A stretch of DNA of 64,000 bases from Escherichia coli O127:H6 str. E2348/69 (lineage in GTDB: Bacteria; Pseudomonadota; Gammaproteobacteria; Enterobacterales; Enterobacteriaceae), in NCBI RefSeq assembly GCF_000026545.1, contig NC_011601.1; one strand, given 5' to 3'. Positions 54,717-64,000 of the stretch are shown here, piece after piece; within the stretch, counting starts at the first letter, position 1, and each line of letters opens with the position of its first letter. The position numbers and the translations under genes were made by a program. Below the pieces are notes generated by a model. The model had not been told where the DNA came from. It ran no database searches and was given only the letters and a program-made list of their open reading frames with translations.

Positions 54717-54734
54717 TTCTTACAGCTGTAGGCA
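54717..54734. promoter_or_regulatory. candidate EvgA box upstream of safA-ydeO
   Basis: TTCTTACA-GC-TGTAGGCA fits the inverted-repeat consensus TTCYTACA-N2-TGTARGAA with one mismatch. Confidence 0.45.
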
Positions 54735-54852: not shown

Positions 54853-57132
54853 TTAATTTGATGGTTCTAATTCAACCGGAATACTTTTATAGCCAGGAAT
54901 GCCACTTAATGGATCGTGGTTATCAAGTGTTAGCATGTGATTCGATTCTGGAAAATAGGTCACCAGTGAGCGGTCAGCCATAGGGTAAATGACCACTTTT
55001 AATCTATCCATGCGGCGTGAGCTACGTTTACCGTCTGGCGTGAGTGCAATAAGATTAACTCTTTCGCCGTTTTTTACACGGCAAATTTTAGCTTGTTTAG
55101 CACTCATAAAGACCACATCTCGTTGTCCGAATACACCTCGATAGCGATCATCCATACCATAAATCGTCGTGTTGTACTGATCGTGGCTGCGTACTGTCGC
55201 CATGACCAGTTTACTGTTAAACGCTGAAGAGGGATCTTCTAACAGCCCTTTGCTGGTAATGAAATTAGCCTTACCTGACGGCGTCATCCAGCGCCTTTCA
55301 GCAGCTGCGTTTATCAGGTGAAAACCACCAGGATGACGGATGCGCTGGTTATAGTCGGCAAACTCTGGCAGCACAGCTTCAATGTCATTGCGAATGCGAT
55401 CATAATCTTCCACCAGATACTCCCAGGCTACCACGCTCTGGGGTAGTGCTGCTTGCGCGATTCCCGCGACCACTGCACACTCTGATTTCAGCATTACACC
55501 GGCGGGTTTTAACACACCACGCGAGGCATGAATCATCGACATTGAATCTTCAACGGTTACCGCCTGCGCACCGCTTTTTTGCATGTCAATCTCGCTACGT
55601 CCCAGAACCGGCAGAATATAGCTATGCCGTGCGGTCAGCAGATGAGAGCGGTTAAGCTTAGTGGCTACGTGTACCGCCAGATCTAATTGCGTTAACGGTA
55701 CAGCGCTCGCTTCCCGATCTGGCATTGCCAGTGCAAAGTTGCCCCCCATGCAGATCAATGCTCGAGCTTGCCCCGCACATATAGCTTGCATGCTGGCGAT
55801 TGCAGCATGTCCAGGTGCATGAGGTGGGGTGAAGCCATAGCGCTCACCCAGGCGATCCAGAAACTCTGCAGACGGTTTCTCGGTGATACCGACGGTTCGG
55901 TCGCCCTGTACATTAGAGTGACCTCGTAGTGGGCAGATACCCGCACCAGGCTTGCCAATGTTACCTTTCATCAACAGCAGATTGACCAGTTGCTGTACGT
56001 TCTGGGTACCATGTTCGTGCTGAGTGATCCCCATTCCGTAACAGATAATGGTTCGTTCGGCAGCGGCATATGCATCAGCAAGTTCGGCGATTTGTGTCTG
56101 ACTTAGTCCAGAAATACGTTCGATATCTTTCCACTCGGAATTGAGCACGTCACGGCGTAGCTCGTCAAAGCCGATGGTATTCGTTTGAATAAATTCGTCA
56201 TCCAGCAATGAGGGCCGACCTGCGGCGCTTGCAGCATCATCGTGCTCAATTAACAGGCGCATCATCCCCTTGAGCAATGCCATATCGCCACCAATGCGCA
56301 CGTTATAGTAGGCACTGGCCAACTGAGTCTCAGAGTTCGTCAGCATTTCAAACGGGTTTTGCGGTGCGGTAAATCGCTCCAGGCCACGTTCCTGTAGAGG
56401 ATTGATGGCGATCATTTTCGCTCCCCGTTTCACTAAAGCGCGCAACGAAGTCAGCATGCGAGGGTGGTTTGTACCAGGGTTATGCCCAATGCAAATGACT
56501 AAATCGCATTTCTCAAAGTCTTCCAGCAACACGGTCCCTTTACCCACACCGATACTCGCTGCCAATCCCACACTGGTCGGTTCATGGCACATGTTGGAGC
56601 AGTCGGGAAAGTTATTGCTCCCGTATTCACGGGCAAAAAGCTGATAAAGAAAGGCAGCTTCATTGGAAGTGCGCCCCGAAGTATAGAATTCAACCTGATT
56701 GGGATCACTATAGCTTTGAAGGCGAGCGCCAATTTCGTCGAAAGCTTGTTGCCAGCTTAATGGCTTGTAACAGTCGCTGACGTCATCATATTTCAAAGGC
56801 TGAGTGAGACGTCCCGCAGCCTCAAGCTCGTGATCTCCCCAGGTAAGTAATGATTGAACCGTATTCTCAGCAAAGAAAGAGGCATTTACCTGCTTATCCG
56901 TGACTTCCCAGGCGATTGCTTTTGCGCCGTTTTCACAAATGTCGAATGACGCACTGTGCTTAGGATCTGGCCATGCACATCCCGGACAGTCAAAGCCCTC
57001 TGGCTTATTCATGTCAAACATGGCAATAACATCCTGGCGTATATCCATCTGCTTACGTACTGCATTCGCTACGGATTTAACAGCACCCCAACCACCGGCA
57101 GCTCCCTGGTAGGATTCAATTTTTTTCTTCAT
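54853..57132 (-). CDS. ydeP: molybdopterin oxidoreductase-family acid resistance protein
   Basis: 759 aa; formate dehydrogenase-like molybdopterin domain. Confidence 0.9.
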
Positions 57133-57380
57133 CTGCTTATCCTGTGTGGAAATGAATTATTAGGATTTGTAATAGCGATGATGCACAGTATATACATAGG
57201 GTTTATCGTCAACATGGATATATAAGAGTAGGGGACTACTCTCTTACTATTTTTACTCTATTATCGTTAAATAATAGAGTAGTATAAATACGATAAGTTA
57301 AGCATCATCTCTCATAGGGTTTAAATTAACATAATTCTCAATATAAAAAATAAGACTCTGGCTTCAATTGTGCGCGGATT

Positions 57381-57398
57381 TTCTTACAAGTGTAGGAT
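57381..57398. promoter_or_regulatory. candidate EvgA box upstream of ydeP
   Basis: TTCTTACA-AG-TGTAGGAT, very similar to the safA-upstream box. Confidence 0.45.
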
Positions 57399-57470
57399 AA
57401 TAGCCTTCACAAAATAATTATCCGCGCAATTTTCGTGAATGGAGCGCATAGACTAATGTCAAAATCACAA

Positions 57471-58385
57471 TTATTCATAGATAAAAGTGACACCAATGAC
57501 TGACTGGACGGCTCCGGCTGCAACCTTATTTCCTGTTTGTCCATAGGTTGCGCTTAAACCCAGAGGTACTTTGCTTTTATTTACTGTCCCCAGGGAGACA
57601 TTTTCTCCTGTTGCCAGTGTTTTTCCATTACGCATCAGAGAGACACCCACGCCCGATGCTTTTGTTGCATCTGGTGCTGTGTTAGCAAACACTTGTCGGG
57701 CACTGTCAGTGGTGGCACCCGAAAGATAAAATGAGAGCTTTTGTTCGCTAGAGCAATATACACCAAGGGGTATTTCTGCGCTTCCAGGAAAGTCCGGGAG
57801 ATTCACGGTGACATTACGACTATCAACGGTGCAACCGCCTGTTGGCATAACAACACTGTTATTTGAAATAATATTCCACGTAAAATTACGCGGATTTCCG
57901 CTTCCTAACGTGGCAATTTTATACATATGAATACGGGCAATAACTTCCCCTGCTTTTATGACAACTCCACCGGCCGCTCCGACTGGGGTAATATAGAGTT
58001 TTAACGGTAATGGCATCGGTGTCTTATCACCAATATCCAATACGTTGGTATTTGTCGTCAACGGGAAGGGGTAGGTCACATTATTCCAGTACAGTGATCC
58101 TTTATATGACTGTAGGGAGCCTGCGAAAGCTGATCCTTGTACCAGGTTTATATGATCAGTGTCGTACCAGCCGCCGTAATCATTCCAGCAACTTATATGC
58201 TGAGACAAGTCTACAACCAGATTCTGGCCCGGTTGTATTACAGGATCGAGATTAACATAAACAGAGGTTGTACCTGCTCCAATACTTGACCCGCCATCGA
58301 CATTACAACTGAAGGCAAAAACTTTGCCTGCCATTAATAGAAGATAAATACCGAACAGGACCTTTATACTGAATGTTTTACCCAT
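57471..58385 (-). CDS. ydeQ: FimH-like fimbrial tip adhesin
   Basis: 304 aa; signal peptide; two-domain adhesin-like; last gene of the chaperone-usher operon. Confidence 0.8.
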
Positions 58386-58443
58386 GATATATCCTAAGTT
58401 TAAAAAATTGGTTTAAAAAGGAGGCAAAAAAATCAAATTGATG

Positions 58444-58947
58444 TTATTGCCAGGTATAGATCACATTGATTAGCGCCTCGATCGTTCCCTGGCTTGCGTT
58501 TCCATTCACCGTGATAGCTCTTGCCTTAAGTGGAAACTGTGCATTACGAGTGATCTCATCAACAATAACCGTTTTGCTATCGCCATTTTTTAACGTCGCA
58601 TCCTGGTCATCCCTTAGCTCTATCTGAATATTTTCGGCAGTACCTTCATTTTTGTAATAACCCGTATTGTCAGTTGAACCTGTCACGATTGCCGTCACTG
58701 CACTTGTTTCAATCGGACAATCGGTTAATGACAAAGTAATATTGTGCCAGCCAGATGCAGAACCAGGTTGTTGCAGATTGCGTGTATAAAGATCCCCGAG
58801 ATTAACGTTAGCTTCTTTGGTTTGAATAGTGCATGGTTTAGCGACTACCCGACCATTAACAGTGATAGTGACATCGGCGGCCTGGAGAGTTGCTGTAAAT
58901 AACGTGCAAAACGTAGCTAACAGGAACCTCTTGTGAAGTCTTTTCAT
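58444..58947 (-). CDS. ydeR: FimG-like minor fimbrial subunit
   Basis: 167 aa; signal peptide; pilin-like C-terminal beta-strand. Confidence 0.8.
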   Translation of the reverse strand: MKRLHKRFLLATFCTLFTATLQAADVTITVNGRVVAKPCTIQTKEANVNLGDLYTRNLQQPGSASGWHNITLSLTDCPIETSAVTAIVTGSTDNTGYYKNEGTAENIQIELRDDQDATLKNGDSKTVIVDEITRNAQFPLKARAITVNGNASQGTIEALINVIYTWQ

Positions 58948-58959
58948 ATCTGACTCTGA

Positions 58960-59490
58960 TTATTGAAATTCAAGGGTAAAGGTTGCCGAAGCGCTCACCA
59001 GTCCTTGATTGACGGACTTCTGAGTTGACTTCAAACGAGCGGAGTAAGGCAAAATATTGTTCTGTTCTGGTACCAATGGGATCCACTGCATCCCGGCATG
59101 AAGGTCATTCAATTTCACCGGACGCATATTTCCGTCCAGTATTTCTATACCCAAACCGGAGGCCGTATTGCTTCCTTCATCCAGTTTCAACAGAGTATTA
59201 TTTTCTGCATCCTCAATACCGTTAAATGCAACCCGAACCCCCGTTGTCCCTTTGCTGCATTCACTTAACGTAATCTGAAAAGGGACGGCTGGACTTGTGC
59301 TACCGGTCGTTGGAAATTGTCTGGCACTGTTTTTTTGGAGATCTACGGTAAAATTAAGCGAATCCGATGAGACTGTGCAGCCATAATCGAGAACGCGCCC
59401 GCTAATTTTAATAACGCTATCTGCGGATAAAGCAGAATAGGTGGTTAACCCCAGACATAAACCGAGGAAAATAACGTTATTGTATTTCAT
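58960..59490 (-). CDS. ydeS: FimF-like minor fimbrial subunit
   Basis: 176 aa; signal peptide; C-terminal ...ATFTLEFQ. Confidence 0.8.
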   Translation of the reverse strand: MKYNNVIFLGLCLGLTTYSALSADSVIKISGRVLDYGCTVSSDSLNFTVDLQKNSARQFPTTGSTSPAVPFQITLSECSKGTTGVRVAFNGIEDAENNTLLKLDEGSNTASGLGIEILDGNMRPVKLNDLHAGMQWIPLVPEQNNILPYSARLKSTQKSVNQGLVSASATFTLEFQ

Positions 59491-59503
59491 AATCTATTGT
59501 TCC

Positions 59504-62155
59504 TTAGCGACAGATTGCTGTCTGCTGGTTCAGCAAGGTTCCAGGAGAGACTGCAGGAAGCTTGTAATCGACAATACAGTTTGAGTTTTTATCATTGCCC
59601 CATGAAACCTGTAATTTCCCTGACTGTGGAAGTCCAGTCAGATAAACCTGACCATTTTCCGCGACAATGCTGCCATTTTTATTCTCTCCGTGAGTGACAA
59701 TTGCACCGAATGGAACGCTTTTATTACCGTACTTCAACGTCATTAATACTTTCCCGCCGATTTGTGCATTAAATGTTGCTCTGGCAATAGCACCGTGAGT
59801 TGGGATGACAGTGACTACGGTTTCATCCAGTTCAACATTATCTGCAAGGGAATTCGCGTTAAGAGCGACACGATTTTCTCTATATTCTGTCGCAAATGGT
59901 AATATGGCATAGCCACGCCAGTCGGTATGAATTCCGGTCTGGTTCTCTATTTTGACATTATCAGCGCCAGGAGCCTTAACCAGAACCATTGTGTCGCCCA
60001 GCGGCTGTCCAAAGGTGATGCCATCAGCATGAGCAATAATGCCACCACTCATTCCGTAATAAATCTGGCTGCTGTCACCACTCCGACTGTAACCGATATT
60101 CGTATTACCGTAAGCTCCACGATAATTAAGAGAACTGTAACCACTGGTGCCAGACGATGTATTACCCCCGTGGGTGTTACCGACCTGAACACTATAATTC
60201 AGGTTATTATCCGGCAGCAGAGTGCCATAAACTCCCGATAGATTGGTCATGCCGCCTTTCAAATCGTTTGACATATTGTAACTGGCGTTTGAGTTACGAA
60301 ATGCCGACTGACTGTCTGTACGCATCCAATGACTGAAGGGAACATTAAGCGTAAAAGCGAGTAAATGATCCCGATCGTTTTGCCATATATTATTGGAATA
60401 GCTGTAATTCAGCGAAGTCGTAATATCACCAAACGGCACATTTAATCCAAATGATATTTGTTGGTCGCTGCGTGACGTGTTCCAGTAACTTTGGCGACTG
60501 GCACTGAAAAATGTCGTACCATAATTTCCAAGCTGCTGAGAGATGCTTATTTGTTCCTGACCACGCTTACTGTAGAACAGATTAAAATAATCAATAAATA
60601 GTGTCTGCTCACTGGTGTCTCCGGTAGGAGGCTTGACGGTGTAACCACTCATTCGACTGTAGGCACTGTCGGATAAGTTATAAAAACCTTGCGTAGAATA
60701 GCGATATCCTGCGACCTGGATATTGGTTCCTGTCTGGTAGAAGGATTTGCTGTAGACGGATTTAAGCGATTGACCGCTGTGACGGGTGTCATCTGCAAGC
60801 GTCGTATTGGCTTGCGTGATATCGAAAGAAAAGGCACCAAACAGTCCCAAATCTTTACCAATACCAAGGTTGAAGGCCTGATAATTTTCTGCAATTTGCA
60901 TTCCGCCATAAGGTGTCCAGTTTCCTTCCAGACCATGCATCAAGCTACCTTGTATGAACTTGGGGGAGCTTTGCAGGTTATTTCCACTACGATATTCCCC
61001 CATGGCAAGCGCATAACACGTATATCCAGCACGTTGGAGAACCGGAACAGACGAATAAGGAACATATAATGTCTGAATACTGCCGTCTGCCTCTTTTATG
61101 GTTACTTGCAGATCACCACCATTGGCCGCAGAGTTGATATCATCAATAGTAAAAGGGCCGGGTGGGACAGTAATCTGATAAACATCGTATCCATTCTGTT
61201 TTACACTCACTTGTGCGGTGCCACGAGCAATACCATGAATCACCGGAGCGAAACCATGTTGGCTATCGGGCAACATCGCTTCTGTTGAATTTATTTTAAG
61301 GCCACGAAAGTTCACACTGTCAAAAATATCGCCATCGGTATAACTATCACCCACTGTTAACCGTGAGCGTAACGGAATAATGTCACGTTCAGCCGACGTA
61401 TTGATATGCTGCCATTTATTGCTGTCAGATGAATTGCTACTCCCACTGTTATAACTCCACGTTGAGTTATCGCGCAGTCGCCAACTACCAATGTTGATGC
61501 CACTCTGTAAATTCAAATATGCATAGTTGGATTTTCCTGCATTATGGTTACTACGGTTATTAATAGAATTACCATTAAAACTATAGTTTAGTAGCCCTGC
61601 ATTTATTCCTTCTTCCCACAGATCAGGAGAAACATAGCCGCGAGCCATTCTGCCGACATATATTTGCGGAACGGAGAGTGACAGATGTTGCTGACCAACA
61701 TCAAATTCAGATGATGCGTCAGCCAAACGATCCTGAAGTGGTGTGCATGCGCTGTTGTCCGGCGCATGTTTATCTGCCGAATGTTCCTTGTTGTCTAATA
61801 ACGCAGATTTTTTTATGCCAAGACTGACAAGAAGATCTGTACTCAGGCATGGGATGAGATCTGCGTTATTATCATCTGCAATAAAAGTAATATCCCGACT
61901 AGTCATAAATTCGTCGTTCAAATAAATGTCGACCCGATATGTACCAGGTGGTGCCTCGCGTCCCTTAGTAAAGGCGGATAAATCGACAGATTCAGCAAGA
62001 TCATTGCTTAAGAACCGTGGATTAAAATAATACTCTGCGTCAACGGGAAATACCGCAGTTGCTAAGCCAAGGGCAATGGTAAGCCGTGCAAAGCGAGGCA
62101 GTAGTAACACCTGATGCATACGATATGCCTTAAATGCGGCACGAAAGGCTGTCAT
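59504..62155 (-). CDS. ydeT: fimbrial usher (FimD-like), apparently full length
   Basis: 883 aa uninterrupted ORF with FimD-like blocks (YFNPRFL, GTYRVDIYLN, GYDVYQITVPPGPFTIDDI, C-terminal ...CIVDYKLP). Confidence 0.85.
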   Translation of the reverse strand: MTAFRAAFKAYRMHQVLLLPRFARLTIALGLATAVFPVDAEYYFNPRFLSNDLAESVDLSAFTKGREAPPGTYRVDIYLNDEFMTSRDITFIADDNNADLIPCLSTDLLVSLGIKKSALLDNKEHSADKHAPDNSACTPLQDRLADASSEFDVGQQHLSLSVPQIYVGRMARGYVSPDLWEEGINAGLLNYSFNGNSINNRSNHNAGKSNYAYLNLQSGINIGSWRLRDNSTWSYNSGSSNSSDSNKWQHINTSAERDIIPLRSRLTVGDSYTDGDIFDSVNFRGLKINSTEAMLPDSQHGFAPVIHGIARGTAQVSVKQNGYDVYQITVPPGPFTIDDINSAANGGDLQVTIKEADGSIQTLYVPYSSVPVLQRAGYTCYALAMGEYRSGNNLQSSPKFIQGSLMHGLEGNWTPYGGMQIAENYQAFNLGIGKDLGLFGAFSFDITQANTTLADDTRHSGQSLKSVYSKSFYQTGTNIQVAGYRYSTQGFYNLSDSAYSRMSGYTVKPPTGDTSEQTLFIDYFNLFYSKRGQEQISISQQLGNYGTTFFSASRQSYWNTSRSDQQISFGLNVPFGDITTSLNYSYSNNIWQNDRDHLLAFTLNVPFSHWMRTDSQSAFRNSNASYNMSNDLKGGMTNLSGVYGTLLPDNNLNYSVQVGNTHGGNTSSGTSGYSSLNYRGAYGNTNIGYSRSGDSSQIYYGMSGGIIAHADGITFGQPLGDTMVLVKAPGADNVKIENQTGIHTDWRGYAILPFATEYRENRVALNANSLADNVELDETVVTVIPTHGAIARATFNAQIGGKVLMTLKYGNKSVPFGAIVTHGENKNGSIVAENGQVYLTGLPQSGKLQVSWGNDKNSNCIVDYKLPAVSPGTLLNQQTAICR

Positions 62156-62196
62156 TATTAATTCCGATTGAGTTTATTATTAATTAGGTCACTGGC

Positions 62197-62916
62197 TTAC
62201 TGCATGGTTGACTTAATACGCGGAGTTAATGCACCGTAATCATTGATCGTCTGAAAACTGATATCCCCGGTTGCAGCATGCGGGATATCCACCGATACTT
62301 CACCTTTTGGCGGCACCATGGTGTTTGGGAGATTGCTATTTCCTGCTTTCATATTTGTTACGGTAATGAAGTAGGGCGTTGGATTAATAAGAGTGAGTTT
62401 GCTGCCGCTGCGACGAAACCGAAGCATTGCAGGCGCTTCTTCAGGTGCCATTGCCAGGTTCGTGGGGCGATAAAACATTTTTATGCGGCTAATAATTGCC
62501 AGCTGTAATGTATTCTCATTCTTCTGATCTTTTTCCATAGCAGGAATAGCTTTAACATTAACCCAGAACAGGCTTTCACGGTCGCCTGGTAACTGATGAT
62601 TAGTGGCGTTGATTATCCGAAGCGTATTCTCTTTTTTACCTTGCATGGAAAAAAGCGGTGGGGTAATGACAAACTGGGTGTCTTTTTGGTCACCTGCATT
62701 TTCTATCCATGACTGAATGAGATAGACACTGGCAGGATCATTATTCGTGACAGGCAATAAAACCTGTTTCTGGTTTGCCGGATAAATTACCCGCGTCGCA
62801 CCCAGTGCGACAGCTGCGTTGGCAACGGTGCTATGGCAAGCAAAGAGCAATAAAAGTAACACTGTCGCCATAAAGGAAATAGAGTAGGGGGTACGCGTAG
62901 TTTGCATCTGATGCAT
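62197..62916 (-). CDS. periplasmic fimbrial chaperone (FimC-like)
   Basis: 239 aa ORF (true start probably an internal Met near 62871); PapD-like signatures incl. ...SLFWVNVKAIP.... Confidence 0.8.
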   Translation of the reverse strand: MHQMQTTRTPYSISFMATVLLLLLFACHSTVANAAVALGATRVIYPANQKQVLLPVTNNDPASVYLIQSWIENAGDQKDTQFVITPPLFSMQGKKENTLRIINATNHQLPGDRESLFWVNVKAIPAMEKDQKNENTLQLAIISRIKMFYRPTNLAMAPEEAPAMLRFRRSGSKLTLINPTPYFITVTNMKAGNSNLPNTMVPPKGEVSVDIPHAATGDISFQTINDYGALTPRIKSTMQ

Positions 62917-63268
62917 TCTCCATGTGTTAAGAGGATAAGCGGGGAAACCGTTACATCAGACAATCGGTAAATGTTGCTAATACATTGGCGACTCGCTGGG
63001 TTTCCAGACTTAATGCGTTTGTAATAAATGTTGGTTCTCTTTTAATAGGAAAACCTTGCTACCAAGTAAATTTTTTAAATAACAGTAAATTTAACTACTG
63101 TTGTTTATTGATCGTTTAGATATTATGTAATTTTTCATAGTGCTCCCAAATAAAAACCATTCCTCATTAAAAATGAGATGAACATAGGTATATTGCTCGG
63201 GTGTGCGTAGCCATGCCACACACACCCTGTTTCAATTTCAGATGACGTATAGCCACCTTAAGATTGAA

Positions 63269-63832
63269 TTATAGATATTGAACTTTGAAGGTCGCATCAG
63301 CGTTTGCAGTACCAGCTACTGACTGCCCGAGAGCAATATAACGAGCCTGGAACGACAGTATATTCGTGCCATCAATCAAGTCAGTTTTAGCGCTAAAAGT
63401 AGCACCATCAAGTACTAATACCTCCCCTGTACGGTCCAAAATTTGGATACCGACATTTTGGGCAGAGCCTGCCGCTGAACTCTGCAGCGCTAATGTATCG
63501 TCATTACTGGTGACAGTAGTACCCAGGAATGCAACAGCTGCATTACTGGAAACATTGGTATCACAATCATTCAGCTTGATATTGAAGCCAACGGCGGAGC
63601 TGAGGTCACCCGCTTTAGCCAGGCGAGAAGAACGAACCTGACCCAGCTCAACCGTTTGGTTCATTGATTCTGAATCAATCGCACAAGCGGCATTTACCAC
63701 TTCACCTTTAAAATGAATTACACCGCCATTAACAGTGGTCATTACTGATTCATCACCCTCGGCTGCGCTTACCGCAGCAGACGACATCGCCAACACAGAA
63801 ACGACAATAATACCGACATGTTTGAGTTTCAT
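63269..63832 (-). CDS. major fimbrial subunit (FimA-like)
   Basis: ORF 63269..63880; start placed at [23 protein letters not shown]...; strong similarity to type 1 FimA (...[21 protein letters not shown]..., C-terminal ...[10 protein letters not shown]). Confidence 0.8.
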
Positions 63833-64000
63833 AATTCTCCAAAATTTATATTTAAGTAGCTGAATAAAGAGAGTTAACAATTAAGTTATTCTGTTATTGC
63901 TTATAAAACAAGAATCATTCTTGATTGGATGTTGCCCTGAGAATATAGTTCCCATGGTTATTACATTTTACGAAGAACGATAATATCTTTAAATTACAAG

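Follow-up and report, generated by a model that had tools for sequence, protein, structure and literature searches.

A sequence-intact F9/Fml chaperone-usher operon in Escherichia coli O127:H6 E2348/69 at the site of the ydeQRST remnant of K-12

Results

A complete F9/Fml operon downstream of hipBA

We analyzed 64,000 nucleotides of EPEC O127:H6 E2348/69 (contig NC_011601.1), hereafter the window, which has 100% identity to that strain, and identify the locus at 57471–63832 on the minus strand as the F9/Fml ("Fim-like", yde) chaperone-usher operon in its ancestral complete form, a reading to which we assign a probability of about 0.93. Previous publications already cover the operon, its intactness in E2348/69, its truncation in K-12, its promoter, its control by H-NS and temperature, and its adhesin with respect to both structure and ligands; Wurpel et al. 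2014 (Table 2) list f9 as intact in E2348/69 and disrupted in K-12 MG1655 (PMC3966885). The genes are as follows.

63269..63832, minus strand: major subunit, fmlA/c1936 homologue (PGAP label "fimA"); 187 aa from ATG; Pfam Fimbrial, E 3e-30
62197..62907, minus strand: periplasmic chaperone, FimC paralogue; 236 aa (RefSeq); PapD_N E 8e-40, PapD_C E 5e-12
59504..62155, minus strand: outer-membrane usher, FimD paralogue; 883 aa; PapC_N, Usher and PapC_C full length
58960..59490, minus strand: minor subunit YdeS, FimF-like adaptor; 176 aa; Fimbrial E 7e-22; 45% identity to FimF
58444..58947, minus strand: minor subunit YdeR, FimG-like; 167 aa; Fimbrial E 7e-10; 57% identity to FimG
57471..58385, minus strand: tip adhesin YdeQ = FmlH, lectin and pilin domains; 304 aa; FimH_man-bind E 6e-78

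An earlier note, made from the letters of the window, had described a complete operon with all six genes intact, and this description held. The six minus-strand ORFs are uninterrupted between 57471 and 63832, their translations contain no internal stops, and RefSeq flags none of the six genes as a pseudogene. Careful translation of the usher and the chaperone, where an internal stop or frameshift would have counted against intactness, gave continuous ORFs of 883 and 236 aa. The Pfam domains were matched over their full length (FimH_man-bind 1–145 of 145, PapC_N 1–146 of 146, Usher 1–549 of 549, PapC_C 1–65 of 66, and likewise PapD_N, PapD_C and Fimbrial). The locus thus encodes what a chaperone-usher system comprises: a two-domain PapD-like chaperone, a full-length usher with N-terminal domain, barrel/plug and C-terminal domain in a single ORF, a major pilin and its adaptors (three Fimbrial-domain subunits), and a tip adhesin with two domains. 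Two gene starts depend on the start codon chosen. The same note had ended the operon at 63900; the ATG-based major-subunit gene reaches 63832, and an upstream TTG at 63880 fits the larger figure roughly. The longest ORF of the chaperone extends to 62916, compared with 62907 in RefSeq.

Alignment to known fimbrial operons of pathogenic E. coli, which the note had proposed as a check, gave F9/Fml as the match. The operon known from CFT073 (c1931-c1936), UTI89 (fml) and O157:H7 (F9), and as the ydeQRST remnant in K-12, occupies the same ydeP-hipBA site and elsewhere has the same six genes, order, lengths, promoter, transcription start site (TSS) and 5'UTR length as in E2348/69, the DNA differing by allelic changes only (~1–3%). 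In the E2348/69 record, the operon is followed directly by ydeP, and a variable insert separates its upstream side from hipA/hipB; the same borders, ydeP and hipBA, are given for the F9 operon in Figure 1 and the text of PMC3966885. The region 5' of the f9 promoter is strain-specific, E2348/69 having an ABC-three-component/AAA-ATPase insert there, outside the window. All six genes have equal lengths in E2348/69, Nissle 1917 and O157:H7. Protein identities between strains were computed against Nissle 1917, regarded here as closely related to CFT073, and ranged from 97.8% to 100%: YdeR is identical and the major subunit 98.4% identical to its orthologue. About 2% of the residues of the usher, chaperone and major subunit of E2348/69 differ from those of other strains, and a loss-of-function missense change may be among them.

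In the adhesin FmlH, the FimH_man-bind domain spans residues 27–171 and is followed by a C-terminal pilin domain; the protein has 47% identity to FimH. Residues 25–184 are identical at all 160 positions to the crystallized lectin domain of UTI89 FmlH (PDB 6AOW). The Gal/GalNAc pocket of that protein is formed by Y46, K132 and R142, with loops 10–15, 44–53 and 132–142 (PMC5866590), and all three ligand-contact residues are present in E2348/69. FmlH is an anti-adhesion and vaccine target under study for urinary tract infection, and since the lectin domains are identical, inhibitors and antibodies directed at the UPEC protein should recognize the EPEC allele.

Resemblance to type 1 fimbriae and probable assembly

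Gene order follows that of fimA, fimC, fimD, fimF, fimG and fimH in the type 1 operon (fimAICDFGH), each F9 gene being a paralogue of its counterpart, with 45–69% protein identity. The operon presumably belongs to the gamma-1 (type 1-like) clade of Nuccio and Baumler. The major subunit has 69% identity to K-12 FimA, the chaperone 60% to FimC, and the usher 58% to FimD across 862 aa. Alignment of the two chaperones showed the motifs GATRVIYP and NVKAIP in both; we take these to hold the conserved Arg8 and Lys112 (FimC/PapD numbering). The two operons also share a two-domain adhesin and a hairpin 3' of the major-subunit gene. They differ in that F9 has a 361-nt non-coding spacer instead of fimI, has neither the fimB/fimE recombinases nor an invertible switch, and has an adhesin that binds Gal/GalNAc glycans rather than mannose (PMC5866590).

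Judging from the homologous type 1 pili and from published work on F9, the operon would be transcribed as a single message from a sigma-70 promoter 251 nt 5' of the major-subunit ATG, with H-NS repressing the promoter at 37 °C and repression being relieved at about 20 °C. The subunits would be exported by the Sec pathway and then bound by the PapD-like chaperone, and the usher would polymerize them via donor-strand exchange. The predicted fiber consists of a rod of major subunits, followed by the YdeS and YdeR adaptors and the FmlH tip adhesin, whose likely ligands are glycans with terminal Gal, GalNAc or Gal(beta1-3)GalNAc/GlcNAc.

Promoter conservation and expression

The region upstream of the major-subunit gene, which the earlier note had marked as a possible site of regulatory elements, is the first part of a long leader.

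63833..64000, minus strand: the 168 nt nearest the major-subunit ATG within the f9 5'UTR (251 nt), from the published CFT073 TSS located in the E2348/69 record

The TSS, -10 and -35 of f9 have been mapped in CFT073 in a study that also demonstrated binding by H-NS and F9 expression at 20 °C (PMC3966885). The published promoter (-35 TAGTCG, 18-bp spacer, -10 CATAAT, TSS G at -251) has an exact match in the E2348/69 record (L001). In window-equivalent coordinates, the TSS is at 64083 (L001 16084), 83 nt past the window end and 251 nt from the ATG, the -10 at 64090–64095 (L001 16091–16096), and the -35 at 64114–64119 (L001 16115–16120). The GC content of the 63833..64000 region is 30–34%. Folding of the 5'UTR gave no significant signal of a structured leader or RNA thermometer (z = -1.56), and consensus scans for intrinsic terminators and internal promoters yielded no more sites than shuffled sequences.

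An intact sequence could still be a cryptic, non-functional relic in E2348/69, permanently silenced or carrying inactivating missense changes and contributing nothing to the biology of the strain. Such a reading draws on the regulation of F9, which H-NS represses and which can scarcely be detected in CFT073 and O157:H7 grown at 37 °C (PMC3966885), and on repeated loss or disruption, in that a full-length locus is missing from about a third of genomes, with IS insertions also observed. The literature searched, moreover, yielded no study of F9 expression, assembly or binding in E2348/69 itself. Set against this are the six intact ORFs, a lectin domain unchanged from a functional, crystallized protein, and the promoter and 5'UTR, which are nearly invariant in four strains and across phylogroups, suggesting maintained function; near-identical operons, furthermore, make fimbriae when expressed (PMC3966885). 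We consider the relic reading unlikely, although it is the strongest of the alternatives. Judged by its sequence, the complete F9 operon of E2348/69 plausibly gives functional fimbriae, as the earlier note had supposed, but the weak expression at 37 °C in other strains means that "intact" does not equal "made" under host conditions.

A stable hairpin in the spacer and a palindrome at the promoter

The gap between the major-subunit and chaperone genes, estimated at 350 bp in the earlier note, measures 361 nt and contains a strong hairpin.

62908..63268, minus strand: AT-rich non-coding spacer, 361 nt, at the position of fimI in fim; GC 35%
63199..63227, minus strand: GC-rich hairpin with a 13-bp stem and a 3-nt loop, beginning 42 nt past the major-subunit stop; no U-run follows

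The hairpin has a fold energy of -25.3 kcal/mol (z = -4.5), which none of 200 shuffles equaled, and the gap as a whole folds with z = -4.4. It is unchanged among E2348/69, Nissle and O157:H7, while neighboring positions vary. As the hairpin is not followed by a U-tract, was not picked up by the scan for intrinsic terminators, and through its invariance leaves no covariation, its role is one that we infer: it is probably a partial transcription stop or an mRNA stability element and would thereby raise the ratio of the major subunit to the assembly proteins. We rejected the hairpin as a homologue of FimR2, the RNA from the 3'UTR of type 1 fimA, as the homology of fimA and the f9 major-subunit gene stops at the stop codon and the hairpin region has none of the GGA motifs of FimR2. 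An Rfam search of the whole locus assigned no family, its sole match being OxyS at the noise level (E 0.92). Position and a loose resemblance are all that FimR2 and the F9 hairpin have in common.

Upstream of the major-subunit gene, an 11-bp perfect palindrome, TAAATAACATG-N14-CATGTTATTTA, encloses the f9 -10 hexamer and the TSS. The F9 promoter paper mentions neither the palindrome nor the hairpin (PMC3966885). They might point to regulation not described so far, the hairpin being processed into a stable 3'UTR-derived sRNA, as happens with FimR2, and the palindrome serving as the operator of a further repressor besides H-NS; we regard this as a speculative and rather improbable idea.

The place of the spacer, which in the fim operon is that of fimI, raises the alternative that it is a decayed fimI-like subunit gene, and one reading frame does end in "...ANVLATFTDCLM*", resembling the C terminus of a subunit. 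An equally "convincing" motif is present in a different overlapping frame, however, which indicates that such patterns arise by chance. The ORFs overlapping the spacer are all at most 58 aa, the longest being out-of-frame overlaps with the start of the chaperone gene. In tblastn with Fim/Fml subunits the best score was 15.4 bits, equaled by 146 of 200 shuffles; no sense frame matched Pfam Fimbrial at E values up to 10; and blastn against fimA-fimI-fimC gave no match. With all of these tests at chance level, we rejected the remnant, which is now quite improbable, and continue to read the spacer as non-coding DNA of the F9 operon.

EvgA boxes and inverted repeats

The sequences resembling EvgA boxes that the earlier note had seen near the operon proved real but lie downstream of it and belong to other genes.

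57381..57398, plus strand: match to the EvgA box, TTCTTACAAGTGTAGGAT, between ydeQ and ydeP, part of the ydeP promoter; one mismatch to TTCYTACANNTGTARGAA

This box follows the adhesin stop by 73 nt and precedes the ydeP ATG (57132) by ~250 nt; a second, also with one mismatch, lies at 54717–54734 between ydeP and safA and is assigned to safA-ydeO. Two near-consensus boxes within 3 kb, where none is expected by chance (100 shuffles), might suggest that the operon is under acid-response control by EvgS/EvgA. Both boxes are 3' of the last gene of the operon, however, in front of ydeP and safA, and ydeP is already known as a promoter that EvgA strongly activates (PMC4283999). The f9 promoter is ~6.6 kb off, at the opposite end of the operon, and no EvgA box with up to three mismatches was found in the part of the f9 5'UTR inside the window (63833–64000). 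On the position of the boxes we rejected EvgA control of the fimbrial genes, which we consider very improbable.

Least credible of all is phase variation of f9 by a fimS-like invertible promoter element, for which the earlier note had advised a search for inverted repeats beyond the window. Such a pair was found, the 9-bp repeats TATTCTGTT and AACAGAATA at 63887–63895 and window-equivalent 64120–64128 (L001 15888–15896 and 16121–16129): perfect, 224 nt apart, and enclosing the -35, the -10, the TSS and most of the 5'UTR, much as 9-bp inverted repeats flank the 314-bp element of the paralogous fim operon. A synthetic inverted query nevertheless found the inverted f9 allele in 0 of the 4,923 E. 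coli genomes carrying the region, whereas the same test detected both orientations of the positive control, fimS, with 247 of 4,719 genomes having the opposite one, and on this comparison we rejected the switch. Nor does a recombinase gene adjoin the operon in the E2348/69 record, and phase variation goes unmentioned in PMC3966885. Nine more perfect inverted-repeat pairs of 9–11 nt occur alongside it in 1.6 kb of AT-rich DNA, which puts the TATTCTGTT/AACAGAATA pair at chance level.

The K-12 deletion and the frequency of the complete locus

That K-12 has a truncated operon, reduced to ydeQRS and an usher fragment, had been stated in the earlier note and was confirmed both by gene content and by mapping of the deletion. 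The deletion removed the equivalent of 60731..64010 in window coordinates (3,280 bp), with its usher breakpoint at 60730/60731. The 3' 3.26 kb of the operon is orthologous to ydeQ-ydeR-ydeS-ydeT of MG1655, and the 381 nt aligned up to the breakpoint are 98.95% identical. Besides most of the 5'UTR, K-12 lost the genes for the major subunit and the chaperone together with usher codons 1–475, and it therefore cannot assemble F9 fibers. It kept ydeQ, ydeR, ydeS and usher codons 476–883, within which the annotation of ydeT, a 382-aa fragment, starts at an internal Met.

The truncated state is shared widely: in a set of 5,426 complete genomes of E. coli, 1,374 (25%) have a junction identical to that of K-12. 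Sequence corresponding to the K-12 deletion was found in 3,818 genomes of this set, and about 65–67% of the whole set have the locus at full length. Completeness is thus the majority state of E. coli and is not peculiar to pathogens; at the F9 locus it is K-12 that is unrepresentative. K-12 also retains the f9 promoter and the first 72 nt of the 5'UTR, and this fusion of the promoter to the usher fragment matters when expression data for ydeT, ydeS, ydeR and ydeQ are interpreted.

An intact F9/Fml operon in E2348/69

The segment 57000-64000 of the window matches the E. coli E2348/69 (EPEC O127:H6) chromosome with 100% identity over its full length. The earlier note had proposed a complete chaperone-usher operon here where K-12 has a truncated one. 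At the sequence level this observation is confirmed and the interpretation supported: the minus strand carries six ORFs head to tail, without interruption, and RefSeq flags none of the six genes as a pseudogene.

Genes of the F9 operon, with identity to the K-12 type 1 (Fim) paralogue
57471-58385, minus, adhesin (ydeQ/fmlH), 304 aa; FmlH vs. FimH, 47%
58444-58947, minus, minor subunit (ydeR), 167 aa; YdeR vs. FimG, 57%
58960-59490, minus, minor subunit (ydeS), 176 aa; YdeS vs. FimF, 45%
59504-62155, minus, usher, 883 aa; vs. FimD, 58%
62197-62907, minus, chaperone, 236 aa; vs. FimC, 60%
63269-63832, minus, major subunit, 187 aa; vs. FimA, 69%

Pfam domain models are matched in full across the operon proteins, including the usher (PapC_N 1-146/146, Usher 1-549/549, PapC_C 1-65/66), the chaperone (PapD_N and PapD_C) and the adhesin (FimH_man-bind 1-145/145). 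All six genes have the same lengths as in Nissle 1917 and O157:H7 PA20, and the proteins are 97.8-100% identical to the Nissle orthologues. The six Fim paralogues of K-12 are collinear with the F9 proteins, and the chaperone shares with FimC the motifs GATRVIYP and NVKAIP, where Arg8 and Lys112, which anchor the subunits, are located. The FmlH lectin domain (residues 25-184) is the same at 160/160 positions as the UTI89 protein crystallised as "F9 pilus adhesin FmlH" (PDB 6AOW, with ten more PDB entries), and Y46, K132 and R142, the ligand-contacting residues in the FmlH structures (PMC5866590), are all found. The operon has ydeP on one side and, further upstream on the other, hipBA, as placed by Wurpel et al. 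2014 (PMC3966885). The locus is thus the already-described F9/Fml operon. As Table 2 of that study scores "O127:H6 E2348/69, B2, +" (intact) and "K-12 MG1655, A, D" (disrupted), what the earlier note chiefly claimed is correct and had already been published. Slightly beyond the published work consulted are the exact endpoints of the K-12 deletion and how often they occur, the search of the population for an invertible switch, which was negative, and two small conserved noncoding features, a hairpin after the major-subunit gene and an 11-bp palindrome at the -10/TSS.

One widespread deletion allele in K-12

To read past the window end, we used 25 kb of the E2348/69 record (L001; window = L001 + 47999), the overlapping part of which was checked and identical. 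MG1655 holds ydeQ, ydeR, ydeS and ydeT, a 382-aa usher fragment, and then the yneL pseudogene and hipAB, in line with the K-12 remnant of ydeQRS and part of the usher named in the earlier note. Aligned to L001 by BLAST, the K-12 junction region gave two homology blocks: homology ends at window 60730, the final base of usher codon 475, and restarts at L001 16012 (window-equivalent 64011), so that 3,280 bp are missing from K-12 relative to E2348/69 (junction at window 60730/60731 and L001 16011/16012; 10080 in L002, the K-12 locus). The deletion takes out usher codons 1-475, the genes for chaperone and major subunit, and 179 nt at the promoter-distal end of the 5'UTR. K-12 retains the f9 promoter with the first 72 nt of the 5'UTR, joined to usher codon 476, and ydeT-ydeS-ydeR-ydeQ of K-12 are probably still under the H-NS-repressed f9 promoter. 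No obvious microhomology was seen at the endpoints. A 9-bp perfect hairpin in the 5'UTR, ACAACAAGT-N10-ACTTGTTGT (L001 16013-16040, window-equivalent 64012-64039), starts one base beyond the deletion endpoint; this may be chance, or the site may be prone to form structure and have taken part in the deletion.

Among 5,426 complete E. coli genomes, 3,643 have window 57000-64000 in a single place with a coverage of at least 80%, and the segment missing from K-12 has any match in 3,818 and a match of at least 80% in 3,515. Most genomes (about 65-67%) have the complete operon, in agreement with the 60% (25/42 genomes) reported as intact (PMC3966885). About 25% of genomes have the K-12 form, a single widespread deletion allele: its exact junction was found in 1,374 of the 5,426 (241-nt query across the junction, coverage of at least 80%), which implies that the deletion arose once, in an ancestor. 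Other genomes carry different disruptions, including IS1, IS2, IS4-like and IS66-like insertions.

The f9 promoter is not a fimS-type switch

In CFT073, the f9 transcript begins with a G that precedes the ATG of the major subunit by 251 nt, and its promoter has -35 TAGTCG, an 18-bp spacer and -10 CATAAT; H-NS binds the region, with repression at 37 °C and expression at 20 °C (PMC3966885). Both hexamers and the spacer length are unchanged in E2348/69 and a G lies exactly 251 nt from the ATG, placing the start site at window-equivalent 64083, 83 nt past the window end, with only 168 nt of the 5'UTR inside.

Promoter elements of f9 in E2348/69
L001 16115-16120, minus, -35 hexamer
L001 16091-16096, minus, -10 hexamer
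L001 16084, minus, TSS
L001 16072-16107 (window-equivalent 64071-64106), 11-bp palindrome, just past the window end

The promoter/5'UTR region has a GC content of 30-34% and is nearly invariant among E2348/69, Nissle, O157:H7 and K-12; the 5'UTR RNA has no unusual structure (fold z = -1.56).

The earlier note had left an invertible switch open, as the window ended too early. Scanning for inverted repeats past that end, we found a perfect 9-bp pair around the promoter (L001 15888-15896 and 16121-16129), superficially like fimS, the invertible element of the type 1 operon. We built the hypothetical inverted f9 allele and searched it against all genomes: among the 4,923 with a match, none covers more than about half. 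The same construction for fimS (1683-1996 of L005, the K-12 fim locus) detected fimS inverted relative to the MG1655 reference in 247 of 4,719 complete E. coli assemblies. Finished genomes can reveal an invertible switch as orientation polymorphism, and this count is a useful baseline. With no recombinase gene adjoining the operon either, we reject a fimS-type element; the f9 promoter lies outside any such element.

The perfect 11-bp palindrome, TAAATAACATG-N14-CATGTTATTTA, encloses the -10 hexamer and TSS, shows no variation among E2348/69, Nissle 1917, O157:H7 and K-12, and is not mentioned in the F9 promoter paper (PMC3966885). We regard it as a candidate operator that a dimeric regulator might bind.

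A conserved hairpin between major subunit and chaperone

A 361-nt spacer with 35% GC separates the major-subunit and chaperone genes. In it, 42 nt after the major-subunit stop codon, a hairpin begins (window 63199-63227) that combines a GC-rich stem of 13 bp with a loop of 3 nt (-25.3 kcal/mol, z = -4.5); it lacks a U-tract and is not called as an intrinsic terminator. The hairpin is unchanged in three strains of different lineages; of the remaining gap columns, about 10% vary. Judging by pap and fim operons, a hairpin that follows the major-subunit gene should attenuate read-through or make the upstream message more stable. In either of these ways, the f9 hairpin would set subunit stoichiometry. 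The equivalent position in fim yields FimR2, an RNase E-processed sRNA, but sequence homology between f9 and fim ends at the major-subunit stop codon and the f9 hairpin region lacks the GGA motifs of FimR2.

The gap sits in place of fimI in the fim operon. A fimI-like remnant was not detectable: the best tblastn score for a subunit-gene remnant, 15.4 bits, was matched by 146 of 200 shuffles, and the gap had no matches to Pfam or, by blastn, to fimA-fimI-fimC.

EvgA boxes and neighbouring genes

We scanned for EvgA boxes with the 18-bp consensus TTCYTACANNTGTARGAA, reportedly from Masuda and Church 2003. The window has two matches with one mismatch each, where 0 are expected by chance: 57381-57398, between the adhesin stop codon and ydeP, and 54717-54734, between ydeP and safA, in front of safA-ydeO. 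The boxes noticed earlier near the operon are real, but both are downstream of it and go with the acid-resistance genes; the ydeP promoter is strongly activated by EvgA (PMC4283999). On the same strand, the fimbrial operon is directly followed by the acid-resistance cluster ydeP-safA-ydeO.

Just upstream of the f9 promoter and outside the window, E2348/69 has short pseudogene fragments (L001 16258-16824: a bhsA-like N-terminus, a helix-turn-helix fragment and a hypothetical fragment), as would fit a region that has been rearranged repeatedly. Between the promoter and hipBA, also outside the window, lies an insert of ~6 kb (L001 17260-22575), absent from this position in K-12, Nissle and O157:H7. 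It is annotated with an ABC-three-component system (two genes), an AAA ATPase, a hypothetical protein, a short reverse-transcriptase-domain ORF and integrase fragments. The 5' region of f9 is variable, and this insert has the look of a small defence or mobile island there.
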